Shown here piece by piece: positions 7,464 through 23,441 of a DNA stretch of 64,000 nt. The stretch is taken from the NCBI GenBank assembly GCA_963717145.1, contig OY970325.1, positions 3,584,001 to 3,648,000 on the forward strand. The letters are read 5' to 3'. The DNA comes from an uncultured Armatimonadetes bacterium. Lineage in GTDB: Bacteria; Armatimonadota; UBA5829; DTJY01. How positions within the stretch are numbered: the first letter of the stretch is position 1; every line of letters starts with the position of its first letter. A model generated the notes under the pieces. The model had not been told where the DNA came from. It saw nothing but the letters and a program-made list of their open reading frames with translations, and searched no databases. Both the position numbers and the translations under genes were made by a program.

Positions 7464-8327
7464 TTACTTCGACGCCAGGTTGACTGAGAAATTCAGGTGC
7501 GCTCGGACCGCAACCTGTCCGCCCTGTTTGCCATCGGTCACGTCCGCGTCCATCTGCATGTCTATCGTCCCCTCGGAGCGGATGATGCGGCCCCTCTCGA
7601 CGGAGAAGTACGTCGTCACGTCGCCCACGACCAGCGCCTTGAGGTTGCCGTCGATCGGCAGCTTGGTGTCCGCCACTCGACCGGCCAACTCCGCCAACTG
7701 CGCGAGCGGTAGATCCATATTGCCGCTCAATTCCTGTTTGATGACGGAGACCACATAGCTGCCGAGCTTGCTCCTCTCGGCGGTGAGCTTCGATCTCTGC
7801 TCCACGCCGATGCCCATCGGGAGGTTCATCGTGTCAGTCCAGTAGTCGCCGACGTTCAGCGGCTGGCCGGGAAGCAGGATGTACTGCGTCATTCCGCTGT
7901 TTCCGAGTTGCAGACCACCGAATAGACCGCCCGGCTGGCCGGGGGTGGTGACGCGGGTCGAGGGTCCGTACTTCGACACCAGGCCCGTCATCGGCGGGAT
8001 CTTGCCGAGGGGTAGTTTCCTCGTCTGGTTGCCGATAGTCATTGTCATCGATTCGATCGTATCGACAAGCTCGACGTCGCCGTCCGGAAGCATTCGCCCG
8101 GTCTTCTGCTTGACAATGCCCACCATCTTGATGTGCATCGGTGGGATCTGAGGGGCTTCCGGCGCGCTGATCGCCATCGCGACATCCATGTCCACGACTA
8201 TCTTGTGGCGGACCACCTCGCCCGGGGTGAACTTGTACTGCAGGTCCACCGCGCCCGACGCGTCGGTACCGGCGATGAGAAGTGTTGCCAGGCAGGCAAG
8301 TACTACGAAAAACACTCTACGTACCAT
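7464..8327 (-). CDS. Secreted hypothetical protein
   Basis: Signal peptide, LQYKFTPG start of mature beta-rich domain, GGAGG RBS. Confidence 0.75.
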   Translation of the reverse strand: MVRRVFFVVLACLATLLIAGTDASGAVDLQYKFTPGEVVRHKIVVDMDVAMAISAPEAPQIPPMHIKMVGIVKQKTGRMLPDGDVELVDTIESMTMTIGNQTRKLPLGKIPPMTGLVSKYGPSTRVTTPGQPGGLFGGLQLGNSGMTQYILLPGQPLNVGDYWTDTMNLPMGIGVEQRSKLTAERSKLGSYVVSVIKQELSGNMDLPLAQLAELAGRVADTKLPIDGNLKALVVGDVTTYFSVERGRIIRSEGTIDMQMDADVTDGKQGGQVAVRAHLNFSVNLASK

Positions 8328-8359
8328 TCATCCGACCTCCCCACGATCTGACATACGAC

Positions 8360-8408
8360 GGGCAGGTCTCGCCCTGCGGGTCGACGACCCGCAGGGCGAG
8401 ACCTGCCC
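8360..8408. repeat. REP-like hairpin
   Basis: GGGCAGGTCTCGCCCTGCGGGTCG-A-CGACCCGCAGGGCGAGACCTGCCC. Confidence 0.8.
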
Positions 8409-8492
8409 CTATCATCACTATGGTTATGTCACATTTCCGGGCAAACACTAATACCGGTTTTTCATCAGACCGGAGACTTCATCCGATCCCTG

Positions 8493-8840
8493 CTAGTCCT
8501 CGATGTAGTAGACCAGAAAGACTCCGGCGTTGCCGTAGTTCTTGGTCGCCGTGATCCCGTTCGGACATGCCACTGGGATGGGCACCATGATTCCGCCAAC
8601 CATGCTGGCGCCCGAGGTCTTCCACACCAGGATCGTGCTTCCGTCCGCAGACAGAGTCATCTGCGCCGACTCGCTGCCGGACTGGATGACCATTCCCACC
8701 AGGTGGACCGGGCCGGCGATCGCGCCCGTATCCGACAGTGCCGCCACCTTTGCCTCGGACGGCATGACGAGCAGTTCGCCCTTGCGAGTGGCGGTCACCT
8801 CCTGCGCCTGTTTCGTCGTTCGATTAGCTGCTGTGAGCAT
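8493..8840 (-). CDS. Phage-cluster hypothetical protein (115 aa), paralog of 10689-11036
   Basis: Starts MLTAANRTTKQAQEV after GGAGG RBS; same length and N-terminus as paralog. Confidence 0.7.
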   Translation of the reverse strand: MLTAANRTTKQAQEVTATRKGELLVMPSEAKVAALSDTGAIAGPVHLVGMVIQSGSESAQMTLSADGSTILVWKTSGASMVGGIMVPIPVACPNGITATKNYGNAGVFLVYYIED

Positions 8841-9267
8841 TGGTTGTCCTCCTAGAAGTCGTTCGTGATTCGTGTGCCATCTGGGCGAGAGTCCGACCGT
8901 TCCGCCATTGGACGTGCGGCCGGTCAGGGAACTTCGTCCAGTCGCCGCCCCATTCCAGCCCGCATTCCCCGGCGATCCGGCCGAAGACTCGCCAGGGACC
9001 GTTCCACGTGAGCTGCCCGCCGACCACGAACGCGTAGTCGGCGGCGAGTCCATGATTGTGCCAGGAGGAGCCGCCCCGGGCGTTCGTCACGATCCGGCCA
9101 GGGGCGGTCCGACCATGGGCGTAGAGGCGATTCTGCTCCTGAGCCGATCGGAATCCACAGGTCAGCTTGACGGAAATGCCGACCGCCTGCAGACGCCGCT
9201 CGAACTCCGCCAGCTTGTCTGCGAACTCCGGATCCAGCCCAGGATATGCGCGTTTCGAAGTTGTCAT
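8824..9267 (-). CDS. M15-family metallopeptidase (L-Ala-D-Glu endopeptidase-type endolysin)
   Basis: FRS..EQ..LY, VTNARGGSSWHNHGLAAD, LEWGGDW, DRPH motifs. Confidence 0.9.
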   Translation of the reverse strand: MTTSKRAYPGLDPEFADKLAEFERRLQAVGISVKLTCGFRSAQEQNRLYAHGRTAPGRIVTNARGGSSWHNHGLAADYAFVVGGQLTWNGPWRVFGRIAGECGLEWGGDWTKFPDRPHVQWRNGRTLAQMAHESRTTSRRTTNAHSS

Positions 9268-9384
9268 AGTTCATCCTCTCAGGAAAGCAGGAAAGCAGGA
9301 ACGGAAAGAACGGGGGAATGGGAGATTGGGAGATCCGGGATCGCCCTTTCACCCTTTCCCCCACTCTCCCATTCACGCTGTGTT

Positions 9385-9699
9385 CTACGCCGCCTTCTGA
9401 CGGACGAGCACGTGCTCGATCAGGAAGTTGATCGTGCTGTCCGGCAGCCAGTCCCCGAGGAGCTTGTACAGCTCCGACTTGGCCCACGTGCGGACGTTCT
9501 CACGCTTCTCCTCGTCTGTCTTGTCCTTCATGCTCTCAGCGGCCTCAATGCCCTCGATGATGACTTCGATGACCTCCGCATTGTCGATGAGGAGGGCAAC
9601 CGGCTTCGGGACGCGCAGCTTGTTCCTCTTCCTGCCGAAGACATACGAGAGAATCGGCAGGATATACGGTATGATCTGCCAGATGTTGTTCTTGCTCAT
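9385..9699 (-). CDS. Putative holin-like protein
   Basis: One N-terminal hydrophobic segment, charged C-terminal helices, directly upstream of the endolysin. Confidence 0.5.
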   Translation of the reverse strand: MSKNNIWQIIPYILPILSYVFGRKRNKLRVPKPVALLIDNAEVIEVIIEGIEAAESMKDKTDEEKRENVRTWAKSELYKLLGDWLPDSTINFLIEHVLVRQKAA

Positions 9700-9745
9700 A
9701 GAGAATGCTCCTTTCTTGATTCCATAGCTCCTGCGACTATCACAG

Positions 9746-9843
9746 ATGTAGTGGCCGTGCCTCTGTGCCGGCCATCGGGGTGGTCAAGCCGGCACGGAGG
9801 CACGGCCATTCCGATGGCCGGCACAGAGGCACGGCCACTACAT
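9746..9843. repeat. GTAG-type REP-like inverted repeat
   Basis: TGTAGTGGCCGTGCCTCTGTGCCGGCCAT arm and reverse complement; related copies at 10615-10680 and 13902-13927. Confidence 0.85.
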
Positions 9844-9845
9844 GC

Positions 9846-10151
9846 CTATACCAACACGATGAACTGCGAGATCTCCTCGTCCTCGAACCGGCGCTTGACC
9901 AGCTTCTTCACGGCATAGGTCCGCCCGTCGAGAGCGACCGTGTCGTTCACCGCCACGGACGTACCCGCAGGTATGAGAGCGATCAGCGCCGGCCGATCGA
10001 ACGTATCCTGTTCGACGTCATCGAAATAGATGTGCATGCGGTTCTTGTCGAGCAACATGAATATCCCTTTGGCCGACGTGGTTCCGTTTATCAGAAACGA
10101 CTGTCCGATCCGGTCGAAGACCGTATCTACTCGCGCCTTCAATCTGCTCAT
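9846..10151 (-). CDS. Putative phage head-closure/joining protein
   Basis: 101 aa, D.V..DGRTY.V beta-barrel motif, position after connector. Confidence 0.55.
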   Translation of the reverse strand: MSRLKARVDTVFDRIGQSFLINGTTSAKGIFMLLDKNRMHIYFDDVEQDTFDRPALIALIPAGTSVAVNDTVALDGRTYAVKKLVKRRFEDEEISQFIVLV

Positions 10152-10153
10152 GG

Positions 10154-10588
10154 TTACCAGCCCTTCATGCTGTCGCTTGTGAACGTCCGATCCACGCCCA
10201 ACGTAGTGCTCGCTATGCCGGTATCGTCCTCCGTACCGGCGATCTTCTGGTATGGCCTCAGGCGCTCTGTTCCCTGAGCCGCGAGCGCGATACCGTAGTC
10301 CTTGCGAGCACCGATCGTGATACCGCCCGCGGAGAGGTTCTCGGAAGCTCCTGCCTCGCGGTTGAGCTGCTGCAGGAATTCTCCGCTGACGATCTCCAGT
10401 ATGCCGAGCTTGAGGGTCGCCTGAAGCTTCGCGTTTCCGGTATCGCTCAGGTACTCATCGGCGAGAGTGTACTCGATGGACGGCTGCATCTCGCTGATCA
10501 GCGCGTCTATGTCCGAATCGTAAGTGGTGTCGGCGGTCGGGATCATGCTCTTGCGCTTGATCTCCGCCCGCGTGATCGTAATCGCCAT
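10154..10588 (-). CDS. Putative phage head-tail connector-like protein
   Basis: T..EIK...I...DT..D..I..LI N-terminus and A...L.PY motif typical of connector proteins. Confidence 0.6.
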   Translation of the reverse strand: MAITITRAEIKRKSMIPTADTTYDSDIDALISEMQPSIEYTLADEYLSDTGNAKLQATLKLGILEIVSGEFLQQLNREAGASENLSAGGITIGARKDYGIALAAQGTERLRPYQKIAGTEDDTGIASTTLGVDRTFTSDSMKGW

Positions 10589-10614
10589 CTGTCTTCCTCC
10601 TGCCCCAAGTCAGT

Positions 10615-10680
10615 GTAGTGGCCGTGCCTCAGTGCCGGCCCCGCCACCCCAAATGGCCGGCACTGAGGCACGGCCACTAC
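10615..10680. repeat. GTAG-type REP-like inverted repeat
   Basis: GTAGTGGCCGTGCCTCAGTGCCGGCC...GGCCGGCACTGAGGCACGGCCACTAC. Confidence 0.85.
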
Positions 10681-10688
10681 GGAGCTGT

Positions 10689-11036
10689 TCAACTCGCGTC
10701 GGCAACGTACACGTAGGCCTCGGCGCCGCTGCCCGTAATGGTGATCGTCAGGTCCGCCGAACACGCCAACGGAAGCGGAAGAAATGCCGACTGTGACGAT
10801 CCCGCCGGTGACTTCAGCCTGAGTACCTGATCGGCGCCGCACTCCACCAGGACAGCGGACCCCTCCATCGAGGACACCGCCACAACGCCCACCAATCGGC
10901 ACGGCCCGGTAAGAATCGTCTGACTTGCAGAGACCTTGTAGCTTCGGCACTCCTCCTGAGACACAAGCAGGCCACCCTGTGCGCTGGCGAGTATTTCGCG
11001 CGACTGCTTCGTCGTCTTGTTCGATGCTGTGAGCAT
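10689..11036 (-). CDS. Phage-cluster hypothetical protein (115 aa), paralog of 8493-8840
   Basis: MLTASNKTTKQSREI after GGAGG RBS. Confidence 0.7.
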   Translation of the reverse strand: MLTASNKTTKQSREILASAQGGLLVSQEECRSYKVSASQTILTGPCRLVGVVAVSSMEGSAVLVECGADQVLRLKSPAGSSQSAFLPLPLACSADLTITITGSGAEAYVYVADAS

Positions 11037-11059
11037 GTGTTTCCCTCCTGGAAGAAGCG

Positions 11060-11208
11060 AGTGGGGGATGGGGGAAATGGTCAATGGGAAATGGCTGGTT
11101 GATGCTGCGGGAATGCTTTTCTTTCCCGCAGCCGGGGGTACGCTGCGGGAAAGAAAAGCATTCCCGCAGCATCAACCATCAACCATCAACCATTTCCCCT
11201 CATTCCCC
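11060..11208. repeat. Inverted heptamer-array element enclosing a long hairpin
   Basis: ATGG-based units, central GCTGCGGGAATGCTTTTCTTTCCCGCAGC inverted pair, CAACCAT units. Confidence 0.85.
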
Positions 11209-11210
11209 GA

Positions 11211-12116
11211 CTAGGCTACCTGGCTGCCGTATGCGAACTGCCAGAGCCCGTAGCCGACGTTGTACCGGGCCCGCACGCCATAGACGAACTGGTCGCGCAT
11301 GAACCCGTTCTCCGAGTTGCCCTCGAGAGCTGCGAACTCGACCGGAATCCTGGACTGGAAGATCACCGGCTTGATGATCCGCCTTGTACTGAGCAGGAAC
11401 CAGTCGTTCGCATCGCTCAGGTACGGACTCACGACCAGGTCGAGCGCGTTCCGAAGCACGTTCCGGCGGGTATCGGTCTTTCCGCTCGCCGTGTCGGGAG
11501 CATACAGAGACTCCAGCAGTTCCATCGCCGTCCACTTCAGGTCCGGCGGAACGACGAGCGTGTCCGGTACGACGCCCATGATCTTGCCCTTGTCGTCCTT
11601 GAACTTGGACATGGACGTCATCGCCGTCTGAAGTGAGGTGGCGGACAGGGCGGTAGTGCCCTTGTTCGACTGGGTCCCGGACTCGCCCTCGCTGTGGTCG
11701 GTGTCGAAGTAGTACTGACCGTCATAGCAGAGGCTCGCGAACCCGTCGCGGATGAGGCCGAACACCAGTTCATCCTGATGGCGGCGGGCCTCGTCGGCCA
11801 GGCTCTGTACCCGAAGCTTGATCTGACCGTACTGATCGTCCTCAAGTGCGGCCCGATCGACGGCGATCGAGGACTCCCACGTCTTGTTGACGATCGAGTA
11901 GCTGTGCTCCAGAAGCCCGGCGGGCACTCGCTCATCCTTGAACTCGCGCATCTTCGGCACAGCGCCGAGCCAGGGGTACTTCTCGGTGTCGTGCTCGGAC
12001 GGGACGACTGTCGAGATCCTCTCCCAGTCGCCGGACGCCGCTTCATAGGCGTCGAAGAAGACGGCGCGCAGCCCCGCCTCCAGCAGATTCGGAATGTCTG
12101 ACTTCACAATCGGCAT
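11211..12116 (-). CDS. Mu-like major capsid protein (gpT family)
   Basis: VPS....E.Y.WLG..P.MRE, N..WE..I.V.R...EDD.YG, CYDGQ.FFDTDH, YGVRARYN.GYG.WQ.AYGS motifs. Confidence 0.92.
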   Translation of the reverse strand: MPIVKSDIPNLLEAGLRAVFFDAYEAASGDWERISTVVPSEHDTEKYPWLGAVPKMREFKDERVPAGLLEHSYSIVNKTWESSIAVDRAALEDDQYGQIKLRVQSLADEARRHQDELVFGLIRDGFASLCYDGQYYFDTDHSEGESGTQSNKGTTALSATSLQTAMTSMSKFKDDKGKIMGVVPDTLVVPPDLKWTAMELLESLYAPDTASGKTDTRRNVLRNALDLVVSPYLSDANDWFLLSTRRIIKPVIFQSRIPVEFAALEGNSENGFMRDQFVYGVRARYNVGYGLWQFAYGSQVA

Positions 12117-12214
12117 TGGTGTCTCCTTTCAGAATGGTTGATGGGGAGATGGTTAATGGCTAATGGCGGAATGGCTGATGCAGACCGGCCTGCCATCAAC
12201 CATGAACCATCAAT

Positions 12215-13286
12215 TGTCAAGTCCCACCACGTTGTGAACGGTAGTTCAGTAAGTCGGTAGGCTCTTTGATAAACAGATCTGGTCTTTGCGCGTACCAATC
12301 GCAGACCTTCTCATAGGGTGTCTTGCCACCGATCGCGCTGTGCTGTCTCCTTAGATTGTAGATGGTCAGCCACTGGTGGAGTCCATCTATCAACTCCGGA
12401 TATCCAGGATATCTGTGCATCTTGTACGTGCCCTCCTGGATCAGTCCGTTCATGCGTTCCACCAGACCGTTGGTCTTTGGTGTATACGGCCGGGTGAGCC
12501 TGTGTTCAATACCACAGGCTGAGCATACTTCATCAAAGAAGTGAGGTCTCTTCGCCGGACTGCCCCAACGGCTCCAATTGGCCAGAGTGAACTCTCTACC
12601 GTTGTCTGTCAGGATCTTGTGGATCATGAACGGATAGAACCACATGCACAGTCCAAGGAAGCCCACTGCGGATTCCTTGGTTAGGTTGTCGTACACCTGG
12701 AGGAAGGCTAGCCTTGTTGCTCTGTCTACCGCAACGAAGCAATACTTCCTCTTGCCCCCGATCTTGGGCAGGTAGAAACAGTCTATGTGAAGGTATCCAG
12801 GCAGATACTCTTTGAACTTGCCTGGACTTTCTCTCTTTTCTTTTTGGTACTGGGGGAGTCTGCTCACCCCTTTTCTGCTCAGTAAGCGATGTATACTGGC
12901 GCGTTCTGCATTCGGCAGAACTGTGACTACTGCACGCACCAGTGCATCGAGTGCTAGACCTTTGTCCCGGAGCGAGAGGATGATCTCCTCCTCTTCGGGG
13001 CTGAATGCATAATGGATCTTCCTGGGCCGACTGCTGCGGTCTTGCTGGTCACCCCGGGCCTTCCATTTGCAGACTGTTGCCGGCGATACATGGCAGATAT
13101 CTGCGAGCTTTCTGCAGCTCTTGGGACTCTGCCTGAAAAACCGCCGTTGCTTCATATTGCTGGTTGCGTTAGAATGGATCTGCATGCGAGTGGTCTCCTT
13201 TTTTGGTTTGGCGATCATCAAAGAGACTACCGCATGCACCTCCTTCTTTTCAACCCACGGTGTTCATAATGTCATGAGACTGGACA
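12215..13286 (-). mobile_element. IS481-family element, intact copy
   Basis: TGT...ACA ends (TGTCAAGTCCCA / TGTCCAGTCTCA), single rve transposase. Confidence 0.92.
12217..13185 (-). CDS. IS481-family transposase
   Basis: MQIHSNA start, DRSSRP, PGYLHID, TDNGREF, P.TNG.VER DDE motifs. Confidence 0.92.
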   Translation of the reverse strand: MQIHSNATSNMKQRRFFRQSPKSCRKLADICHVSPATVCKWKARGDQQDRSSRPRKIHYAFSPEEEEIILSLRDKGLALDALVRAVVTVLPNAERASIHRLLSRKGVSRLPQYQKEKRESPGKFKEYLPGYLHIDCFYLPKIGGKRKYCFVAVDRATRLAFLQVYDNLTKESAVGFLGLCMWFYPFMIHKILTDNGREFTLANWSRWGSPAKRPHFFDEVCSACGIEHRLTRPYTPKTNGLVERMNGLIQEGTYKMHRYPGYPELIDGLHQWLTIYNLRRQHSAIGGKTPYEKVCDWYAQRPDLFIKEPTDLLNYRSQRGGT

Positions 13287-13309
13287 ATAAACCATCAACC
13301 ATGCATCCC

Positions 13310-13732
13310 CTACCGTGCGTATCCGTCGATCCGGATGCGGACCTGGGTGGCGCTGACGATCTCGGCGATGACGCCGCACTTCACGTCGTTGGTCGTGGCG
13401 GTCGCGTCGTCATCGACGGTCTGATTGTCGACGATGTAGACCTCCTTGCCGACGACCGCCTGAGCGGCATCCCCACCATTGTATGCGAACGTATGTTCGC
13501 CTGTTTTTTCGATGCGGATCTCCTTCGCGCCGGCTGACCCGGCGGAGTTGTCCACCATCTCGTAGCTCACACCGGCGAACAGGAAGCTCGCCGTGTCCGC
13601 TCCGTTCGTGACGTGCCCGCTCGTGTTGATGCATGCCAGTACCCCCTTCGGGATCTTGACGTTCGACATCTTCATCGACTTCAGCTTGCCGTCACTGCGT
13701 TTCGTGTCTCTGTCCGTAGTTGTCGCTGCCAT
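13310..13732 (-). CDS. Mu-like capsid cement/decoration protein (DUF2190-like)
   Basis: T.DR.T, AGV..E.VDN..G.AG, G..VY..D.QTV motifs; lies between scaffold and major capsid. Confidence 0.75.
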   Translation of the reverse strand: MAATTTDRDTKRSDGKLKSMKMSNVKIPKGVLACINTSGHVTNGADTASFLFAGVSYEMVDNSAGSAGAKEIRIEKTGEHTFAYNGGDAAQAVVGKEVYIVDNQTVDDDATATTNDVKCGVIAEIVSATQVRIRIDGYAR

Positions 13733-13757
13733 TGTCACTCACCTTTCTGCATAATGA

Positions 13758-13835
13758 GGGAATGGTTCATGGTCTATGGTTGATGAAAGACCGGCTGCCA
13801 TTAGCCATCAACCATTCCCCACTAACCATTTCCCC
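13758..13835. repeat. Inverted heptamer-array element
   Basis: GGGAATGGTTCATGGTCTATGGTTGATG...CCATTAGCCATCAACCATTCCCC; its end overlaps the stop of the upstream ORF. Confidence 0.88.
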
Positions 13836-15759
13836 TGTGCTTCTCGACTTGCTCGCGGCTGATGCCGAGCTTGGAGAGAAGCTCTTCCTCCTCGGCCGAG
13901 AGTAGTGGCCGTGGCTCAGTCCCGGCCTTCCCCGGAGTCAGCTCCGAGAACTCGATCACCTTCGGCTGGGTCTCCAGGAACTGCAGGAACAGCTCGCCGA
14001 CCGTCGCCTCGCCGTCGGAGAACTTCACGACCTGATCGCCCTGAAGCAGGATCTCTCGCGCGAACGACTCCGACGCCGGCACGATCTTTCCATTCGACTT
14101 CAAGGCCGCCATCCGGGCATCGACGTCCTTCTCCCGAAGCGCGAACTTCAGGTCTGCGATCTCTCGGTCTTTGTCATCTGTGCTCATGCTCTGGTTCACC
14201 TCCCCTCTCGAATGCGGAATTGCGAATGCGGGATTCGGAATGGGTCTGCTCTCCGCGTCCCCGCCTCCCTCCGTCCCCGCGTCTCTGAACATAGTCGCCG
14301 CCGCCACCCTGGGGCTGAGCACCAGGGAGACCTCGGCGAGCCGGAGCGGGTCCTTCAGCAGGCCCACGCTCAGCCGCTTGATGCCCCGGCGCTCCAGGAA
14401 GCTCATCAGGTCTTGCGGAAACGCCAGGGTCGCGAACAGCTCCCTGCCCGTGCGCCAGATCCGCTTCACCGTGCCGACTGCCGGGATGCCGAGATACCCC
14501 CGGATCCACGGCTCGGTCGGCTCGACTACGCGGCCGTCGATCAGCTTCGTGATCAGCCCGCCGAGCAGCTCCAGGTCCTTCTCCTCCAGGCTCCCGAGAA
14601 CGAATCTGGGAATGGACGATGGCTGATGGTTCATGGTTGATGGGACGGCCGGAGTCCGCCCGTTAACCATTCCCCAGTTGATTTCCACCAGCCGGCGGAT
14701 GAGTTGCTCGCGCATGACCGTCTCCTCCAGGTCCCGCTTCAGCCGCTCGAGGTAGAAGCGGAGCACGTCCATGTGCACCTTCGCGAGTGCGACCGACCCG
14801 ACCCGCGACCCTTCATCGCTCGTCAGCGTCTGGCCGAGAATCGCCTTGGCGATCTGTTTGTTGTGGTAGTCGATCGCCGTGATGTATCCCGCATCCCCGC
14901 TCCTCCGGGCCTCGAGCAGCTCGACCGTCACGTCCTCGGGAACGACCAGCGCCGACTCCTGCTGGATCTTGTCGAGCACGCGGAGCAGATCGTCCTGCTG
15001 ATCCTTCGGCACTCCGCGCTTGTACGTGCCCTTGGCGGTCGGCATCCCGAACTTCTCCATATAGAGGTTCCAGAACTTCACGATCGCCTCTTTGCTCCAC
15101 CAGTGCTTGTACGCCGCCCGAAGGTCCGACTGCCCGTGGGGAAGCTCGTAGACCGGCATGTGCGTATACACGATGAACTTCTCCGCCGGCAAACCACTAC
15201 GTTGGGGCACTCCACAGTGTTGGTGCTGGAGTTGCACTCCAGCCCCCCTGTGCGTCAGTCCCCGCACGTTCAGGAACTCGTCCATGTCGAAGCCGAAATC
15301 CGCCGGGTCCTTCGACTTGATGCTCGCCAGCCCGATCATCCCGTCGAACGGGCCGCCCTCGATCGGCTTGTAGTTGATCTCGCAGACCGAGAAGCCCTTC
15401 GCGATCGCATCGAGCACCTTGAAGAGCATCTCCTGCACCGAGCCCTTCATGTCGTTCAGGCAGAACTCGATGAACTGCGCGATGCGGACGTCCTCCGGCG
15501 AATCGGACGCCGGCTGGATGCTCCAGCCCTTCGCGAGGACCGCGAACTTCTTGGTGTTCAGACACGATCGCACCTGGGCGTCGTTCTGCATCTCGTCATA
15601 GACCGCGAACCCCCTGCGGCTGACCAGGTCGTCCGGCGAATACGCAGCGAGACGGAACGCGCCGCTCATCAGGCTCGACCTCGCGACCGCGACCTCGTCC
15701 ATCGCCGGCGTCTTCCGCCCGAAACGCCCAAGGATTCTCTCCGCAATCGATGTTGCCAT
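13822..15759 (-). CDS. Mu gp29/DUF935-like portal fused in frame to a truncated prohead protease and scaffold
   Basis: Y.EM..D..V, A..GFSV.EI, W....EKFG.P, I.KAILGQTLTS, VH portal motifs; then GTVKRIW...LSVGL...EVSLV..PRV and GKIVPA...F scaffold; GGAGG RBS before ATG 15759. Confidence 0.85.
   Translation of the reverse strand: MATSIAERILGRFGRKTPAMDEVAVARSSLMSGAFRLAAYSPDDLVSRRGFAVYDEMQNDAQVRSCLNTKKFAVLAKGWSIQPASDSPEDVRIAQFIEFCLNDMKGSVQEMLFKVLDAIAKGFSVCEINYKPIEGGPFDGMIGLASIKSKDPADFGFDMDEFLNVRGLTHRGAGVQLQHQHCGVPQRSGLPAEKFIVYTHMPVYELPHGQSDLRAAYKHWWSKEAIVKFWNLYMEKFGMPTAKGTYKRGVPKDQQDDLLRVLDKIQQESALVVPEDVTVELLEARRSGDAGYITAIDYHNKQIAKAILGQTLTSDEGSRVGSVALAKVHMDVLRFYLERLKRDLEETVMREQLIRRLVEINWGMVNGRTPAVPSTMNHQPSSIPRFVLGSLEEKDLELLGGLITKLIDGRVVEPTEPWIRGYLGIPAVGTVKRIWRTGRELFATLAFPQDLMSFLERRGIKRLSVGLLKDPLRLAEVSLVLSPRVAAATMFRDAGTEGGGDAESRPIPNPAFAIPHSRGEVNQSMSTDDKDREIADLKFALREKDVDARMAALKSNGKIVPASESFAREILLQGDQVVKFSDGEATVGELFLQFLETQPKVIEFSELTPGKAGTEPRPLLSAEEEELLSKLGISREQVEKHRGNG
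14608..14675. repeat. Inverted heptamer-array element in frame within portal
   Basis: Encodes WGMVNGRTPAVPSTMNHQPSSIP. Confidence 0.85.
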
Positions 15760-15842
15760 CCCCCACCTCCTACTCCTACTCATACTCATACTCATACTCA
15801 TACTCTGATCCTGATCCTGCCCCGTTTTCGTGGACAGATCAC

Positions 15843-16712
15843 CTAGGCCGCTCGTTCGAGAGCGGCCGCCTCGAAATCGGCGGGACTCCGATAGCCGAGG
15901 CTCGAGTGGAGTCGCTGTCGATTGTAGAACACTTCGATGTACTCGAAGATATCAGATCTCGCTTCCTCTCGTGAGGAGTATGTTCGATGATGTATCAGCT
16001 CGGCCTTAAGCGTCGCAAAGAAGCTCTCCATCGGGGCGTTGTCATAGCAATCCCCGGCGCCGCTCATGCTGGCTCGAATTTCGTAGGCTTCGAGAAGCCT
16101 ACGAAATTCGCCGCTCGCGTACTGACACCCTCGATCCGAATGATGGATGACTTCACCGACCGGTCTTCTGTTCTTGTATGCCATCCTGAGCGCCTCACTT
16201 GCGAGCACACTCCCAAGCGTCTCTTTCATCGACCAGCCCACTATCTGGCGCGAGTAAAGATCCATCACCGCCGAAAGATAGAGCCAACCCTCACGGGTAT
16301 GCACATACGTTATGTCGCTTACCCAGACACTGTTCGGTCTGGCTACCTCGAAGTTTCTCTTGAGCAGATTCGCCGCCACAGGCTGGTTGTGCCTGGAGTT
16401 AGTCGTAACACGGAACTTCCGCTTCTGTCTTGCGCGGATTCCGTTTGCTGTCATGAGCCTGGCCACACGGCCTCTGCTGCAGGTCTCACCCGCCTGCCGA
16501 AGCCGTATGTGAACCCTCGGGCTACCGTAGGTGTCTCTGCTCTCGGCGTGGACCTCCCTGATCCGTGTGAGCAGCTTCTCGTTCTTCCTGGCGCGATCGC
16601 TTTCGGGACGCCCCTGCCACGCGTAGTAGCCGCTCCGGCTCACACCGAGCACCCCGCAGATCGTCCCGATCCTGAAGCGACCGTCTTGAGCAGCGATGAA
16701 GGCGTACTTCAC
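15843..16712 (-). CDS. IS3 transposase OrfB
   Basis: SRSGYY, YG.PR, WVSDITY, HHSDRG.QY, DNA.MESFF..LK.E. Confidence 0.93.
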   Translation of the reverse strand: MKYAFIAAQDGRFRIGTICGVLGVSRSGYYAWQGRPESDRARKNEKLLTRIREVHAESRDTYGSPRVHIRLRQAGETCSRGRVARLMTANGIRARQKRKFRVTTNSRHNQPVAANLLKRNFEVARPNSVWVSDITYVHTREGWLYLSAVMDLYSRQIVGWSMKETLGSVLASEALRMAYKNRRPVGEVIHHSDRGCQYASGEFRRLLEAYEIRASMSGAGDCYDNAPMESFFATLKAELIHHRTYSSREEARSDIFEYIEVFYNRQRLHSSLGYRSPADFEAAALERAA

Positions 16713-16990
16713 TGCTGCTCCCTCGCAAAGTACGCCGCCGCTTTTTTTAATATGTCTCTCTCCTCTCGGAGGAGATCGTTCTCCTTGCGGAGACGCTTCA
16801 CTTCGTCCTCAAGGGACTCTCTCTTCCTGGGATCGATCTCTCCCAGGCTCTCCTTGTACTTCCTGATCCAGGCGTCCAGGCTGTTGATGTTGACTCCCAG
16901 TTCCTTTGCGATCCGAGCTTTGCTCGCCCTGCCGGAAAAAGCCAACTTCACCGCCTCCGCCTTGAAGCTTTCTGAATACTGCCTCTTCAT
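16709..16990 (-). CDS. IS3 transposase OrfA
   Basis: YSESFK.EAV HTH, ERDILKKAAAYF, with TTAAAAAAAG near the orfA/orfB overlap. Confidence 0.92.
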   Translation of the reverse strand: MKRQYSESFKAEAVKLAFSGRASKARIAKELGVNINSLDAWIRKYKESLGEIDPRKRESLEDEVKRLRKENDLLREERDILKKAAAYFAREQQ

Positions 16991-17058
16991 CTTGGGTCAC
17001 CTCATCTCTTATTATCCGGTGCCCACTAATTCGAGGCAAGATCACTCATACTCAATTC

Positions 17059-17072
17059 CGAACATATGTTCG
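17059..17072. promoter_or_regulatory. LexA (SOS) box upstream of the phage head operon
   Basis: Perfect CGAACATATGTTCG next to a TTGGCA -35-like hexamer on the minus strand. Confidence 0.7.
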
Positions 17073-17086
17073 CCTGCCAACCCACC

Positions 17087-17128
17087 AAAAAAGGGCCGGT
17101 ATCCCACAACATGGGTCGCCGGCCCTTC
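17087..17128 (-). terminator. Intrinsic terminator downstream of PEP-CTERM gene
   Basis: AAGGGCCGG...CCGGCCCTT stem followed by T-run on minus strand. Confidence 0.65.
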
Positions 17129-17230
17129 CATCATTCGCCTGCCTTCAGCAGTCTTCAGTCCGAAATCTCGCTCCCATATATGTAGCCCGCGAGGAGGCCC
17201 AAAAAGAATGAACGAGCCGTGAACTTTCCT

Positions 17231-18394
17231 TTAAATCTTTCGCCGGCGCGCCAATCCGGCCAGCCCGACCATGCCTGCCCCGAGCGCAAGGAGACTAGAC
17301 GGCTCCGGTACCGGATTCAGCAGCACTGTAGACAGGGTTGAAGAGCCGTTAAGACTTGCCATGGCCGCTATCTGGCCTCTGTCATTGATCCCGTGCACCG
17401 ACTTTATGCTCCAGCCGGATTCGGTCAGCAGGGAATCGAGTTCGGAGACAACCCCGCTGCTGCATATGAACGCCTTCTGTGTGGAGTACGACAGATAGCC
17501 GCCCAGGATAACGCCGGCATTGTTGATGGTGAAGTGGCTCAGCGACGCCGTGGATATCGGCAGTTGCCTCAGGCCCGAGCCTGGCGTCCAAGTGTAGTAG
17601 TTATAGGAACTGCCCGTATACAGCCTCACCAGCAGCACGCCAGCGTCGTTGATGTCGGAGACCCCTGAAGAGCTGTGGTGGTCGCTCTGGTCCGCAGGTA
17701 CTCCCAGATTGTGGGCCGTGCCGTCAGTATCCCAGTAGCAAGCACGGACGAGGCCAACATAACCGCCGTAATCATGGGGCCAATAGAATGCGAAGCTCGT
17801 GCCTCCGGCTACCTCGCCAGACGAGTTGATGCTTGATGGCATTGCCGCTCCGCCGTGGGCGCCCTCAGGTGCCTCAAGATAGCTCAAGACCTGAACTCCA
17901 CCTGTCTCTGTCCACGTAAACCCAGCGCCGCCATAGTGGCCCACGACAGTGCCGCTGTCGTTGATGTCACTGACGTCACCGCTGGTCACTCCTTCGCCGA
18001 GGTCGAGCGGCTGCAGGCCGCCGGACGAGGTGTAGCGGAATGCCTTGCTGCCGGCTGAGCCGTTGGAATAAGTTCCGACAATGTCCCCGCTGTTGTTCAT
18101 TGCACTGACAAAGCCGTCGCGGTAGGTGGCGAGTTTGCCATAAGTCTGGAGTGTGCCGGTAGTGCCGTTCGGTGCGGACGGGGTCCACAGGCATACCGAT
18201 CCCGCCTCGAAGATGTTAGGTTTCACAATCCCCGCGATCTGCCCGGAGTTGTTGATGGCTCCCGGTGTGAAGCTAGGGAGCTGGATCACCTGATACGTCG
18301 GCGGGGCACTGTCCGCCGGCAGAGCGGCGATCGCCAGTACTGCAACAGAAGCCATGAATGACAAGAACTTCGCTCAAGATGCTGGGATGCCCAT
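17231..18394 (-). pseudogene. PEP-CTERM surface protein with extracellular HAF-like repeats; in-frame TGA at codon 7
   Basis: Repeated IN..G.V.G motifs, C-terminal VPEPSS-TM-RRRK; GAGGAG RBS, ATG 18394, TGA 18374-18376, open frame resumes to 17231. Confidence 0.8.
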
Positions 18395-22008: not shown

Positions 22009-23441
22009 GGGTGCATTCGCGTTGAGTGGGTAGCAAGTAAGGAAGGAGTCTCCTGTAATAGTCGGTAACGGTTTGTTGAAGGACAAACATTCCGAAAGGA
22101 GACTCCCAGAGAATGCTTACACTTTTGCACACAGACTCCCTCCTTCAGGCCGCTCGCGACTTTGCGCGCAGCTACATCGATTGCACGGACTTAGGGTCAG
22201 CCGAGGAGCGTATTCAGATCCTGGCGCGTCAGATTGCCGGCGCAATGATGAGTGAGGTTGCCGCCAAGATGAGCGGAAAGCCCACCTACAAGGGTGTTGG
22301 GATAGAATGCGAATGCGGCAGACTGGCCAGGTTCAAGGGATACCGGAAACGCTTCATTCGGACTTTGCACGGAGACATAGAGGTCGAGAGGTCATACTAC
22401 CGTTGCGACCATTGCAGGCGGGGCTACATTCCATGGGACCGCGAGCAGGGGCTGTCCGAGAGAGTATGGACCGCCAGAGTGAAGGAACTCACCGCCTCGA
22501 TCTGCGCCGCGCTTCCATATGAAGCAGCCGCAAGGCTGATCGAGCGAACCACGGGTATTGCGATCGAAGAGAGCAGCGAAGAAGAGATAGTCCGGGATGT
22601 TGGGGAATGCCTCCGCCGAGAGGAGCAGGAAGCGATCATCTCTGTGGTAGACACAGGTGAAGAGGTCTCCTGCGAGGCGACGCCACAGAGGCTCTACATT
22701 GGCATAGACGCGGCCAAAGCGCACACCGATGGCCAGTGGCATGACATCAAGACCATGGTGGTATACGAAGGCGTTCCGGCTGCAGGCAAAGACACGGATA
22801 CCGTCACCAACTCGCGCTACATAGCGGCGCAAGAGACGAGCGACGAGTTCGGGAGACGGGTATACACCAGAGCACTGCAAGCCGGCTATGACGGGGCAAA
22901 AGAGCGTATAGTGATCGCCGACGGCGCAGACTGGATATGGAGAGAGGTCAGGAATCATCTGCCGGAGAGCATCAAGATCATCGACTACTGGCATGCCTGT
23001 GAGCACATATACGGCTTGGCGCGGACACTCTACGGAGAGGGGAATCCCAAAGGGAAGCGCTGGGCAAACGAACACTGCCGGAAGCTTAAAGAGAAGGGGC
23101 CGGGGAGTCTGCTTAGAGCCATGAAGCGGCGCAGAGCACGAAACGATTCTGAGAGGGAAGCGCTTCGGATCGAGACAGGCTACTTCAGAAAGTACCGCAA
23201 GTACATGAACTACCCGGCATACAGGGCCAAGGGGATGATGATAGGCAGCGGTCCGGTGGAAGCGGCGTGCAAGGTGATAGTAGGCCAGAGGTTAAAGCAA
23301 GCCGGGATGCGATGGACGAAGGACGGCGCAGATGCAGTGCTCGCGGTGAGAACTGCCCTCCTAAGCGGCGAACTGGCTCGGATCGAGCACGCAGCACGTG
23401 CCGCCTGAGCCGTGCTCTACCCACTCTGAGGAATTCCACCC
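22009..23441 (+). mobile_element. ISKra4/ISLre2-like (Mutator/IS256 superfamily) element, copy 1
   Basis: 1433 bp, imperfect TIR GGGTG...GAGTGGGTAG, 10-bp TSD CTCGTACCCC. Confidence 0.9.
22113..23408 (+). CDS. ISKra4/ISLre2-like transposase
   Basis: CECG/CDHC Zn motif, GIDAA, ADGADWIW, DYWHA, IGSGPVEAACK. Confidence 0.9.
   Translation: MLTLLHTDSLLQAARDFARSYIDCTDLGSAEERIQILARQIAGAMMSEVAAKMSGKPTYKGVGIECECGRLARFKGYRKRFIRTLHGDIEVERSYYRCDHCRRGYIPWDREQGLSERVWTARVKELTASICAALPYEAAARLIERTTGIAIEESSEEEIVRDVGECLRREEQEAIISVVDTGEEVSCEATPQRLYIGIDAAKAHTDGQWHDIKTMVVYEGVPAAGKDTDTVTNSRYIAAQETSDEFGRRVYTRALQAGYDGAKERIVIADGADWIWREVRNHLPESIKIIDYWHACEHIYGLARTLYGEGNPKGKRWANEHCRKLKEKGPGSLLRAMKRRRARNDSEREALRIETGYFRKYRKYMNYPAYRAKGMMIGSGPVEAACKVIVGQRLKQAGMRWTKDGADAVLAVRTALLSGELARIEHAARAA

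Follow-up and report, generated by a model that had tools for sequence, protein, structure and literature searches.

A predicted SOS-controlled, host-owned system for tail-less phage-type heads in Armatimonadota, with a damaged copy in one genome

An operon of Mu-like head genes followed by lysis genes, lying among host genes in an uncultured member of the Armatimonadota (genome G000), raises the question whether such a cluster is what remains of a prophage or a particle-making system that belongs to the host. The operon fills positions 8493–17072 of the window, by which is meant the whole 64,000-nt stretch of DNA that was analysed, and the original prediction, made from the sequence letters, had placed a tail-less head and lysis module there. 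Pfam and PHROG scans together with reading of the open reading frames (ORFs) found all the predicted genes at their places on the minus strand, giving the following features:

17059–17072, no strand: SOS-type (Cheo-box-like) palindrome CGAACATATGTTCG, presumed LexA operator of the head operon (sequence and genome scan)
15812–17044, minus: IS3-family insertion sequence with orfA at 16709–16990 and orfB at 15843–16712 (Pfam HTH_Tnp_1, rve, HTH_21)
14479–15759, minus: portal protein, Mu gp29 type (PF06074, Portal_Mu, E 5e-73; phrog_113, E 1e-88)
13822–14478, minus: scaffold-like protein, C-terminal 218 residues, fused in frame to the portal (partial Mu-like_Pro / phrog_976 match)
13310–13738, minus: cement or decoration-type virion protein (phrog_1731, E 5e-25)
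12212–13286, minus: IS481-type insertion sequence, transposase at 12217–13239 (rve and rve_3)
11211–12116, minus: major capsid protein, Mu gpT type, intact (PF10124, E 3.5e-79)
10689–11036, minus: p115A, small phage-type protein of 115 aa, between the capsid and adaptor genes
10154–10588, minus: head-tail adaptor, 144 aa, HK97 gp6 / SPP1 gp15 fold (structure model)
9846–10151, minus: stopper or head-closure protein, 101 aa, SPP1 gp16 / lambda gpFII-like fold (structure model)
9385–9699, minus: putative holin, 104 aa (one N-terminal hydrophobic segment and its place before the endolysin)
8824–9267, minus: M15-family endolysin (VanY / Peptidase_M15_4, Pfam E 5e-10 and 2e-9; phrog_2649, E 6e-31)
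8493–8840, minus: p115B, 115 aa, paralogue of p115A and last gene of the operon (BLASTP)
9700–9845 (gap between holin and stopper genes) and 10589–10688 (second copy), no strand: REP-like palindromic host repeat (blastn-short)

The IS3 element sits between the operator and the portal gene and has at least seven near-full copies and further partial ones in G000 (98–100% identity), and the IS481-type element, with about 12 copies (98–100% identity), sits between the cement and capsid genes at a spot that is free of it in the nearest relative, L019; judging from these copies, both are recently active. The host repeats that had been suspected in the intergenic gaps are real, the REP-like palindrome occurring in about 290 copies in G000 and GGTTGATGG-type inverted simple repeats, in about 100 copies, filling further gaps of the operon. 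IS66 and IS5-type transposases adjoin the cluster. A promoter and terminator consensus scan of 8200–17300 gave nothing above shuffles, and Pfam and PHROG scans on either side of the operon gave zero matches to terminase, tail, integrase and replication families.

The portal of G000 is complete to its normal C-terminus and aligns with the whole separate portal genes of relatives; translation probably begins at the ATG at 15759, and the frame stays open further upstream, across a GAGTAT simple repeat, as far as 15801. In relatives the portal and the scaffold-like protein are two ORFs of 407–472 aa and 267–366 aa, and mapping of the junction showed that in G000 a deletion has removed the stop codon of the portal gene together with the spacer and the initial 45–89 codons of the scaffold-like gene. 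A protease part had also been predicted here, but a protease domain, sought with Pfam, PHROG and hhalign, was not detected, and only the C-terminal, scaffold part (about the last third) of Mu-like_Pro and phrog_976 matches the gene. With hhalign against the protease-scaffold of the viral contig L126 only the last ~95 residues were aligned, the target profile being a single sequence because phmmer found no other homologue among the viral loci. The cement protein has a weak Phage_cement_2 match in a relative, and the capsid gene is single-copy in G000.

Structure models were used for the 144-aa and 101-aa proteins. The AF2 model of the former (pLDDT 80) found nothing at E ≤ 0.001 with Foldseek, and with VIA-align phage adaptors made up most of the 50 matches, among them the P74-26 neck (Z 8.5), HK97 gp6 (Z 7.7), the Mu neck (Z 6.2) and the RcGTA adaptor (Z 5.5), scores of 5.5–8.5 that are moderate for a helical protein and on which the adaptor assignment rests. 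The model of the latter (pLDDT 94) matched 2pp6 (E 1.3e-3) in Foldseek and also the T1 stopper, the lambda neck, the R4C stopper, PBSX XkdH and SPP1 gp16 (prob 0.9–1.0, TM 0.4–0.64), and there is a weak Phage_attach match in a relative. When the alignments of adaptor and stopper were used as profiles to search PDB sequences, there was no match at E ≤ 1. The models thus support the two folds, which would fit a sealed head.

The 104-aa protein is a putative holin, named for its N-terminal hydrophobic stretch and its place before the endolysin, and is restricted to f1, the family of G000, where homologues were found in 8 loci. The lysis genes as a whole are confined to f1 and one of its members, G001, is without the endolysin, and release by lysis is therefore not a feature of the whole class. 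Pfam and PHROG assigned no family to several variable genes, to the holin-like protein or to the two 115-aa proteins, p115A and p115B. These two are paralogues, as had been proposed (33% identity, E 2e-16); p115A, which is also restricted to f1 (dN/dS 0.16–0.36), has unnamed viral hypothetical proteins as its nearest protein Atlas clusters (score 0.95), and the orthologue of p115B in G006 is 68% identical.

When genomes of the same class were searched, the same tail-less syntenic cluster that the original prediction had asked for in relatives was found, with the capsid gene in 38 of 41 genomes, mostly in single copy, terL in 37 of 41, and a conserved gene order. In full this order is an SOS-type box, terS, terL, in f1 a second box, then the portal, scaffold-like, cement and gpT capsid genes, one to two variable small genes, adaptor and stopper, followed in f1 only by the holin-like gene, the M15 endolysin and p115. 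The terminase belongs to the Terminase_6 type and has an HTH-type TerS as its partner (phrog_2538, E 8e-12), and terS was seen before terL in 28 loci, some of which are duplicate fetches of one region; in f1 the element is split over two loci, terS-terL lying apart from the head operon. Between host genes, Pfam and PHROG scans showed solely head, packaging and lysis genes, both in the window and in the 20-kb loci of relatives, and in the flanks of the relatives (L015 and L017 among them) no phage regulatory, replication or integration genes.

Within the class the identity of the capsid drops from 89% to 47% with taxonomic distance. The capsid tree follows the host families, with the number of host-family label changes at the minimum of 4 (mean of 18.7 with shuffled labels; 0 of 200 shuffles as low), and it gives the same clades as RecA (Mantel Spearman r 0.81, reached in 0 of 999 permutations), dS of the capsid being equal to that of recA for the same pairs, e.g. 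0.58 and 0.58 for G000 and G006. The dN/dS values are 0.02–0.16 for the capsid and 0.05–0.38 for all other cluster genes (rows involving G006 being left out of the terS comparison owing to a wrong ORF), and pairs with G000 show no excess. The suggested check by dN/dS and by congruence of capsid and host trees accordingly turned out in favour of purifying selection, and by these sequence comparisons the element is vertically inherited and selectively maintained within the class. Beyond the class the same kind of element is widespread but patchy (177 of 401 genomes of the phylum), and one other family holds 2–4 copies per genome in a different gene order, which fits some mobility outside the class.

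The statement that the system has no terminase could be kept only in part, since none adjoins the operon but relatives have terS-terL and G000 itself keeps terS and a gutted terL. The proposed search for a lone terminase elsewhere located these genes 164 kb from the head operon, outside the window, as an intact terS with its own box and a terL remnant in which residues 92–366 of TerL (275 residues) are deleted in frame. The idea of a capsid-only system therefore describes the damage in G000 and not the system. Host genes flanking terS-terL in G000 are not common to the unlinked terS-terL loci of G001, G005, G006 and G009, and no conserved address can therefore be demonstrated for this locus. 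The remaining terL segments have dN/dS of 0.13–0.20, which together with the near identity of the IS copies marks the lesions as recent, so that decay of this copy, which had been raised as a possibility, is seen in the sequence as a fresh breakage consisting of the TerL deletion, the portal-scaffold fusion and the two insertion sequences. Because of these four lesions the copy in G000 probably no longer makes packaged particles; both deletions being in frame, some residual function may be left.

The LexA box predicted at the start of the operon is present, and the genome scan revealed an identical CGAACATATGTTCG box upstream of terS in G000. Exact AT-centred boxes in this genome were confined to the terS locus, the head operon, a polymerase gene and one further locus, where the flanking ORFs have no Pfam match. 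A GAAC-N4-GTTC box is situated 21–64 nt before the portal gene in six of the nine other f1 loci (three have none). Of 14 loci with terS, 9 have such a box in the 250 nt preceding that gene, and it also precedes all four of the unlinked f1 terS-terL loci, against a background rate of 1.9% of windows; g16, L020, L022 and other relatives of the class have no exact box before terS. Y-family polymerase genes have the box too, at their starts in G000 and G008 (two genes) and next to one such gene in G023. As the palindrome thus recurs before terS, f1 portal and Y-family polymerase genes it is probably an SOS box, from which the portal gene of G000 is now cut off by the IS3. The 250-nt regions upstream of recA and of the three lexA paralogues of G000 do not contain GAAC-N4-GTTC, and genome-wide the motif GAACRNRYGTTC was not commoner than a reversed control. 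A further box, GAACATACGTTC, lies inside the cement gene (13487–13498, codons E-H-T-F) and is kept in 10 of 10 f1 loci at synonymous sites, always with the codons GAA, CAT and TTC, other families having different residues at this position.

Zero matches to tail genes were obtained at any annotated locus of the window and the relatives, and PhageMin_Tail, Phage_sheath_1 and Baseplate_J had no match in G000. Tape-measure and sheath families are sporadic in the class (11 and 10 of 41 genomes, respectively) and are grouped with one another at sites apart from the head cluster, in the manner of ordinary prophages; neck and tape-measure genes do occur on the contig of a real phage whose head module is related. 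A tblastn search of G000 with all ORFs of 60 related viral loci gave hits in the head cluster and the terL remnant and otherwise at just a few unrelated sites. The absence of a tail is in this way based on few Pfam families, PHROG scans of a handful of loci and homologues of related phages, and podovirus-type or very divergent tail genes may lie elsewhere.

Taken together, class-wide synteny, purifying selection and congruence with RecA support the original view of a domesticated particle and lysis system rather than an intact prophage. The explanation we favour, and hold to be reasonably probable, is a system owned by the host and induced by the SOS response, which makes sealed heads that contain DNA but have no tail and are released by lysis, and of which G000 has a crippled copy. 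The function, production of DNA-filled capsids upon DNA damage, is a probable one read from the genes alone, and LexA binding, induction, assembly, the DNA packaged, release and the fate of the particle are what we infer from them. Upon DNA damage LexA would leave the boxes, procapsids would assemble on the portal with the scaffold and be filled with DNA by TerS and TerL, and adaptor and stopper would seal the portal. In f1 holin and endolysin would then lyse the cell and set free sealed tail-less heads filled with DNA, which could be taken up as such or be completed by the tails of unrelated phages, as happens with cf-PICI capsids. That the element is an ancient, vertically inherited, SOS-triggered and head-only transducing particle of the Armatimonadota, a GTA-like viriform without tail genes whose heads borrow phage tails or are delivered independently of a tail, with G000 as a very recent natural knockout, is put forward tentatively, as a possible but somewhat doubtful reading.

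An ordinary cryptic prophage remnant, in which the leftover head and lysis genes of a Mu-like phage decay neutrally, would account for the two insertion sequences inside the cluster, the truncated terL, the portal-scaffold fusion and the adjoining IS66 and IS5-type transposases. This reading is contradicted by the comparative data, the cluster being syntenic in 38 of 41 class genomes, its genes having dN/dS of 0.02–0.38 without excess in G000 pairs, the capsid co-diverging with RecA at equal dS, and the flanks in relatives being without phage regulatory, replication and integration genes, and we regard it as highly improbable. Some genes of RcGTA lie outside its main cluster, and the element could similarly be a true tailed gene transfer agent (GTA) with tail and host-recognition genes that are unlinked and too divergent to be recognised. 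It is already divided over two co-regulated loci in f1, it has kept an adaptor and a stopper, which in phages dock a tail, and p115 and the variable genes are without an assigned role. Against this stand the lack of tape-measure, sheath and baseplate-J families in G000 and their sporadic presence in the class, the outcome of the tblastn search with the viral ORFs and the exact AT-centred boxes, which in G000 mark only terS, the head operon, the polymerase gene and the one Pfam-less locus, and a tailed GTA is judged unlikely.

Release of tail-less capsids that join foreign tails, as described for cf-PICIs in 10.1101/2025.02.11.637232, is also what a mobile phage satellite would do that builds its own capsids, steals the tails of a helper and is not owned by the host, and the same packaging set (terS, terL, portal, capsid, adaptor, connector or stopper) without tail genes, as well as the 2–4 copies per genome in one other family of the phylum, would agree with it. 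However, integrase, replication and alpA-type regulation are absent beside the cluster in the window and the annotated relatives, the element is single-copy and vertical in the class with dS equal to that of recA, and it has lysis genes, which the criteria of that study for finding cf-PICIs exclude, so that a satellite is very improbable. The heads may, finally, not serve DNA transfer but form an SOS-induced suicide or defence module, e.g. by sequestering or cleaving the DNA of a phage that is induced or infects the cell or by titrating the tails of that phage, or export damaged DNA. The SOS-type control, its coupling to lysis in f1 and a terminase long kept without any delivery device speak for such a role, which we consider rather unlikely as nothing points to it specifically, no defence-system genes were seen in the cluster and the families outside f1 have no lysis genes.

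The host-owned head maker that we favour resembles known systems on two sides. GTAs such as RcGTA of Rhodobacter capsulatus and CcGTA of Caulobacter are phage-derived, host-inherited, host-regulated, coupled to lysis and multi-locus. By the properties of GTAs given in PMC11841831 and PMC9765227, the element is like them in being phage-derived, vertically inherited, under purifying selection and without replication, integration and repressor genes, and in its apparent control by a host regulon, its coupling to lysis in f1 and its more than one locus; the RcGTA adaptor is moreover among the structural matches of the 144-aa protein. It differs in having a head module of the Mu gpT / Portal_Mu type where RcGTA has an HK97-type one, in that no tail genes were found while a GTA is a tailed particle that takes up host DNA roughly at random, in fragments too short for the whole element, and delivers it to recipient cells, and in a control that is apparently of SOS/LexA type and not of CtrA/GafA type.

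As described in 10.1101/2025.02.11.637232, cf-PICIs are mobile islands of 10–18 kb that encode an integrase, a protease, an HNH endonuclease and modules for replication and regulation but no lysis genes, and they release DNA-filled tail-less capsids that later join the tails of other phages. The element shares with them terS, terL, portal, capsid, adaptor, connector or stopper and the lack of a tail module, but it is fixed and vertical, has no integrase, replication or regulation modules, and carries a holin-like gene and M15 endolysin in f1 members. The HNH family had no match in scans of the window and the loci of relatives. The element is best read as an intermediate between a GTA and a cf-PICI capsid, GTAs being host-owned but tailed and cf-PICI capsids tail-less but those of a mobile parasite, and it is therefore worth asking whether heads without a tail can be a trait of the host on which selection acts.

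If correct, the element would represent a new design of domesticated phage, from a phylum that has been little studied and has few members in culture, with packaging motor, capsid and portal seals (and lysis genes in f1) under what appears to be a class-wide SOS-type control and without a tail. Judged by titles and abstract openings, the papers found on Armatimonadota together with gene transfer agents or with prophages and capsids do not describe it. The parts open to testing are the three operator positions, the two loci and the adaptor and stopper pair, which possibly sets tail compatibility, and G000 offers a natural set of recent lesions for comparison with intact relatives.

What the element has in common with Mu-like phages is Portal_Mu, the gpT capsid and, of gpI/Z, the scaffold part at the C-terminus. 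Among the annotated ORFs of the window and of the relatives' loci there was neither a transposase A/B nor gp30 (Mu F), a protease domain or a tail; the rve-domain proteins nearby belong to the IS3 and IS481 elements, which are multi-copy. Of complete viral contigs, the closest are Mu-like and 30–40 kb in size, with a capsid identity of 38–47%.

G000, the genome studied, is complete (a single contig of 5.37 Mb), and an ORF listing together with Pfam and PHROG scans agreed with the original prediction in placing the head and lysis genes of the window in one operon on the minus strand. Its features, in operon order, are:

8493–17072, minus: head-and-lysis operon, from the portal gene side to p115B
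17059–17072: palindrome CGAACATATGTTCG, beyond the IS3 element as seen from the portal gene
15812–17044: IS3 element, separating the portal gene from the palindrome
minus: portal part of a 659-aa ORF, its first 441 residues (Mu-type portal PF06074, E 5e-73)
minus: scaffold-like part of the 659-aa ORF, its last 218 residues (Mu-like_Pro / phrog_976, C-terminal third only)
minus: cement-type virion protein (phrog_1731)
minus, within the operon between the cement and capsid genes: IS481-type element
minus: gpT capsid gene (PF10124, E 3.5e-79)
10689–11036, minus: 115-aa protein (p115A), after the capsid gene
minus: 144-aa protein, after p115A, predicted head-tail adaptor fold
minus: 101-aa protein, after the 144-aa protein, predicted stopper (head-closure) fold
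minus: 104-aa holin-like protein with a single N-terminal hydrophobic stretch
minus: M15 endolysin, after the holin-like protein
8493–8840, minus: second 115-aa protein (p115B), 33% identical to p115A (E 2e-16)

The two fold assignments come from structure predictions made on alignments of the relatives' proteins. The model of the 144-aa protein (pLDDT 80) matches the P74-26 neck (Z 8.5) and HK97 gp6 (Z 7.7), and further the Mu neck (Z 6.2) and the RcGTA adaptor (Z 5.5), and is that of a head-tail adaptor, while the model of the 101-aa protein (pLDDT 94), with matches including the T1 stopper, the lambda neck, SPP1 gp16 and PBSX XkdH, is that of a stopper. A protease had also been claimed for the operon; profile searches did not detect a protease domain in the scaffold-like protein. 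Host-type genes were found on both flanks, as expected, with a helicase, an epimerase, a DHDPS-like protein and a secreted 287-aa protein on one side and a PEP-CTERM protein followed by IS66 and IS5-type transposases on the other. The host repeats reported for the intergenic gaps are likewise present, in the form of inverted simple repeats typical of G000 and a REP-like palindrome, GTAGTGGCCGTGCCTC.GTGCCGGCC, situated at 9700–9845 and 10589–10688 and occurring in ~290 copies in the genome.

With the capsid protein as query, matches were obtained in 38 of the 41 genomes of the class, G000 counted and G003, G011 and G020 being those without a match. With G000 excluded, the five GTDB families of the class are represented by 9/10 (f1, the family of G000), 5/6 (f2), 6/6 (f3), 16/17 (f4) and 1/1 genomes (f5), and the gene is mostly single-copy, its identity decreasing from 89% to 47% as taxonomic distance grows. 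When analysing 20-kb loci from ten relatives together with 80 loci from a species-representative genome collection, the tail-less cluster proposed originally was recovered with a conserved order: terL, portal, scaffold-like, cement, capsid, one or two variable genes, adaptor and stopper. Beyond the stopper or the lysis genes the relatives encode host enzymes (for example nitroreductase, rubrerythrin, RNase H, ABC and MFS transporters). Variant orders were seen in the locus L018 of one genome, where adaptor and stopper sit between the portal and scaffold genes, and in loci titled Capsulimonadaceae, where cement, scaffold, capsid and adaptor precede the portal gene.

In the relatives a terminase large subunit gene (Terminase_6N/6C) is located upstream of the portal gene, and terL was found in 37 of the 41 class genomes (not in G002, G011, G020 and G021), a count that includes the G000 remnant and a weak match of 31% identity in G003, perhaps belonging to another phage. 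Ahead of terL a conserved ORF of ~128 aa, present in 28 loci of which some are duplicate fetches of one region, matches PHROG small-terminase families (E 8e-12 for the G000 copy). Within f1 the terminase genes adjoin the head cluster in G004, G007 and G008 and lie on other contigs in G001, G005, G006, G009 and G010, where terL is intact and was not found within 6.6–8.1 kb upstream of the portal gene; these five genomes thus carry a two-locus regulon. The original picture of an element free of terminase holds for the operon in G000, beside which none is found, and not for the relatives, which have terS-terL. The lone terminase for which a search elsewhere in G000 had been proposed was located outside the window at C1:3763481–3764301, 164 kb from the head operon, with terS intact and terL truncated.

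PHROG and Pfam scans of the relatives' loci revealed no tail protein, and PhageMin_Tail, Phage_sheath_1 and Baseplate_J have no match anywhere in the G000 genome. A genuine viral contig of 34.6 kb with a related head module (capsid 44% identical) carries an adaptor, Neck1 and a tape-measure gene after the capsid gene. Compared with G000, the full ORF set of 60 related viral loci matched only the head cluster and the terL remnant, apart from a few unrelated places. Tail families are rare in the class (tape-measure in 11 and sheath in 10 of the 41 genomes) and their genes are grouped together on contigs at a distance from the head cluster, the arrangement expected for ordinary myovirus prophages. 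The element is without recognisable tail genes, divergent or podovirus-type tails being a possibility.

The comparison of capsid and host trees suggested originally was performed with 36 genomes; the partial genes of G002 and G033 were omitted, as were the second copies found in G004 and G014. On the capsid tree 4 changes suffice for the five family labels, the minimum possible, the mean for shuffled labels being 18.7 and none of 200 shuffles being as low, and f1, f2 and f3 each form a clade with 99–100% support. Families and shallow clades are identical in a RecA tree of 35 of these genomes (G021 has no full recA match), and the capsid and RecA distance matrices are correlated (Spearman r 0.81, 0/999 permutations as high; r 0.71 within families). 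The dN/dS values, also proposed as a check, are 0.02–0.16 for the capsid gene and 0.05–0.38 for the portal, scaffold, cement, p115, adaptor, stopper, holin-like and endolysin genes, indicating purifying selection on head and lysis genes that descend vertically with the host within the class. Pairwise, capsid dS equals recA dS (0.58 vs 0.58 for G000-G006, 0.31 vs 0.27 for G023-G018), which argues for equal age and against later acquisition. At the level of the class the element is conserved, under selection and co-diverges with its host. In the phylum as a whole, 177 of 401 genomes gave a match to the capsid profile; the gene is near-universal in some families (14/15 in f18, 22/28 in f29), was not found in the 16 genomes of f8 and reaches four copies per genome in f29. 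Since this distribution is patchy and f29 is multi-copy, vertical inheritance is claimed for the class only.

The suspicion that the window copy is decaying was borne out by several lesions. TerL is cut to ~160 residues by an in-frame loss of residues 92–366, retaining the P-loop-like motif GRRWGKT and losing the remaining ATPase domain and most of the nuclease domain. The portal and scaffold-like genes, separate in relatives, are fused by an in-frame deletion that took the stop codon of the portal gene, the spacer and the initial 45–89 codons of the scaffold-like gene, including a conserved VKVEH.DSPLDPLG stretch. The IS3 and IS481 elements, 98–100% identical to 10–12 other genomic copies, are both missing from the cluster of the nearest relative. 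These lesions are recent, since the retained TerL segments still show dN/dS of 0.13–0.20, dN/dS is not raised for any head gene in pairs with G000, and G000 does not exceed its sisters in the length of its capsid end branch (0.058). Decay has not yet reached the remainder of the operon, and the G000 copy most probably represents a conserved element family of which it is a recently disabled member.

The palindrome GAAC-N4-GTTC resembles the Gram-positive LexA (Cheo) box. Its exact 14-mer CGAACATATGTTCG occurs twice in G000, ahead of the IS3 element and portal gene and 20 nt before the distant terS. Among relatives, tblastn placed terS in 14 loci, and in 9 of these an exact box lies no more than 250 nt upstream of it. 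All four unlinked f1 terminase loci have an exact box ahead of terS-terL; in three of them its distance to terS is 20–40 nt, and in the fourth, in which no terS was detected, it lies ~100 nt ahead of terL. It precedes the portal gene by 21–64 nt in 6 of the 9 other f1 loci (not in L019, L023 and L024), the background rate being 1.9% of 280-nt windows, and it lies ~300 nt before the capsid gene in Capsulimonadaceae-type loci. All 10 f1 loci have a third box within the cement gene, always with the codons GAA-CAT-NNG-TTC (E-H-T/M/L-F), at a site where other families have different residues; that these codons are fixed despite a dS of 0.4–1.8 among the f1 genomes points to selection on the DNA motif. 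Boxes are few elsewhere in four complete genomes. They are found at the start of Y-family DNA polymerase genes, which are classical SOS genes, in G000 and G008 (two genes), and one in G023 adjoins a Y-family polymerase gene and a DUF6504 gene. The palindrome noted originally as a LexA box at the operon start is shared with terS and polymerase genes. Against a LexA reading, neither recA nor any of the three lexA paralogs of G000 showed a box upstream, the genome-wide frequency of the motif is not raised, and several relatives have no exact box. The palindrome is probably an SOS box, through which LexA might act. The three LexA_DNA_bind genes of G000 (E 1e-20 to 3e-21) are situated outside the window at C1 998057–998230, 3465988–3466158 and 4617271–4617465.

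The original observation is confirmed and, with these corrections, its interpretation supported. From the gene set found here, the predicted adaptor and stopper folds and the operator-like boxes with their positions we infer a mechanism in which LexA would control the genes of the element, procapsids would assemble, TerS and TerL would package DNA into them, adaptor and stopper would seal the portal and, in f1, the holin-like protein and endolysin would release the particles. The closest experimental precedent is given by cf-PICIs, which release tail-less DNA-filled capsids that are later joined by the tails of other phages, tail specificity being set by adaptor and connector proteins (10.1101/2025.02.11.637232). 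Stopper (24–71% identity) and adaptor (31–84%) are the least conserved core proteins, which, speculatively, would fit tail matching. The element resembles a GTA in ownership and, apparently, in control and differs in that tail genes were not found; it resembles a cf-PICI in particle design, as judged from genes, and differs in having lysis genes and no mobility modules, and it belongs by definition to neither. Among the papers found on Armatimonadota with gene transfer agents or with prophages and capsids, none describes such an element as judged by title and abstract opening, no tail-less GTA appeared among the gene transfer agent papers listed, and the conserved element family may be new to the literature.

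Several observations were made on the relatives' clusters. Records titled Capsulimonadaceae (L054, L057, L074, L076, L082, L085, L101) hold 2–4 copies of a related cluster per genome, with terL only sometimes close by (~35% identity) and no tail gene in PHROG scans of L054, L057 and L076; the cluster may here be a duplicated form or one of greater mobility. Capsid relatives of 43–56% identity on contigs binned as Woesearchaeota, Patescibacteria, Peribacteria and Coatesbacteria MAGs (L083, L087, L089, L091, L094, L050) could reflect mis-binned contigs, phages or a wider spread of the head module. Cargo-like insertions are a GNAT acetyltransferase gene between cement and capsid in G023 (L016 10034–10642) and a Laminin_G_3 (concanavalin-like lectin) gene between capsid and adaptor in G008 (L015 12553–13323), whose product could be a head fibre or spike. 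The close relative G001 (L025 12722–13605) has lost the M15 endolysin gene, and of p115B it retains only the final ~48 codons, situated between the holin-like gene and the conserved gene of the 287-aa protein; erosion of the lysis module is therefore also seen elsewhere in f1. The 287-aa gene itself (7464–8327, minus), directly after the operon and without family match, keeps its position in G006 and G001 (66–70% identity, dN/dS 0.21–0.27) and could be either a neighbouring host gene that has been conserved or a module part not recognised as such in the sub-clade of these three genomes.

Hairpins flanked by inverted simple repeats, with differing repeat units, are found in many other intergenic regions of G000, including those upstream of recA and the lexA paralogs. 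When the IS3 and IS481 regions are compared by BLAST, their matches often run past the IS ends into repeats of this kind, as if these elements insert there. Elsewhere in the window two inverted 431-aa ORFs of the UPF0236 (transposase-like) family with identical Pfam scores (22113–23408, plus; 27146–28441, minus) enclose an ECF sigma factor, an anti-sigma zf-HC2, a DUF4097 protein and a 23S-rRNA-IVP-family gene, an arrangement that looks like a composite transposon.
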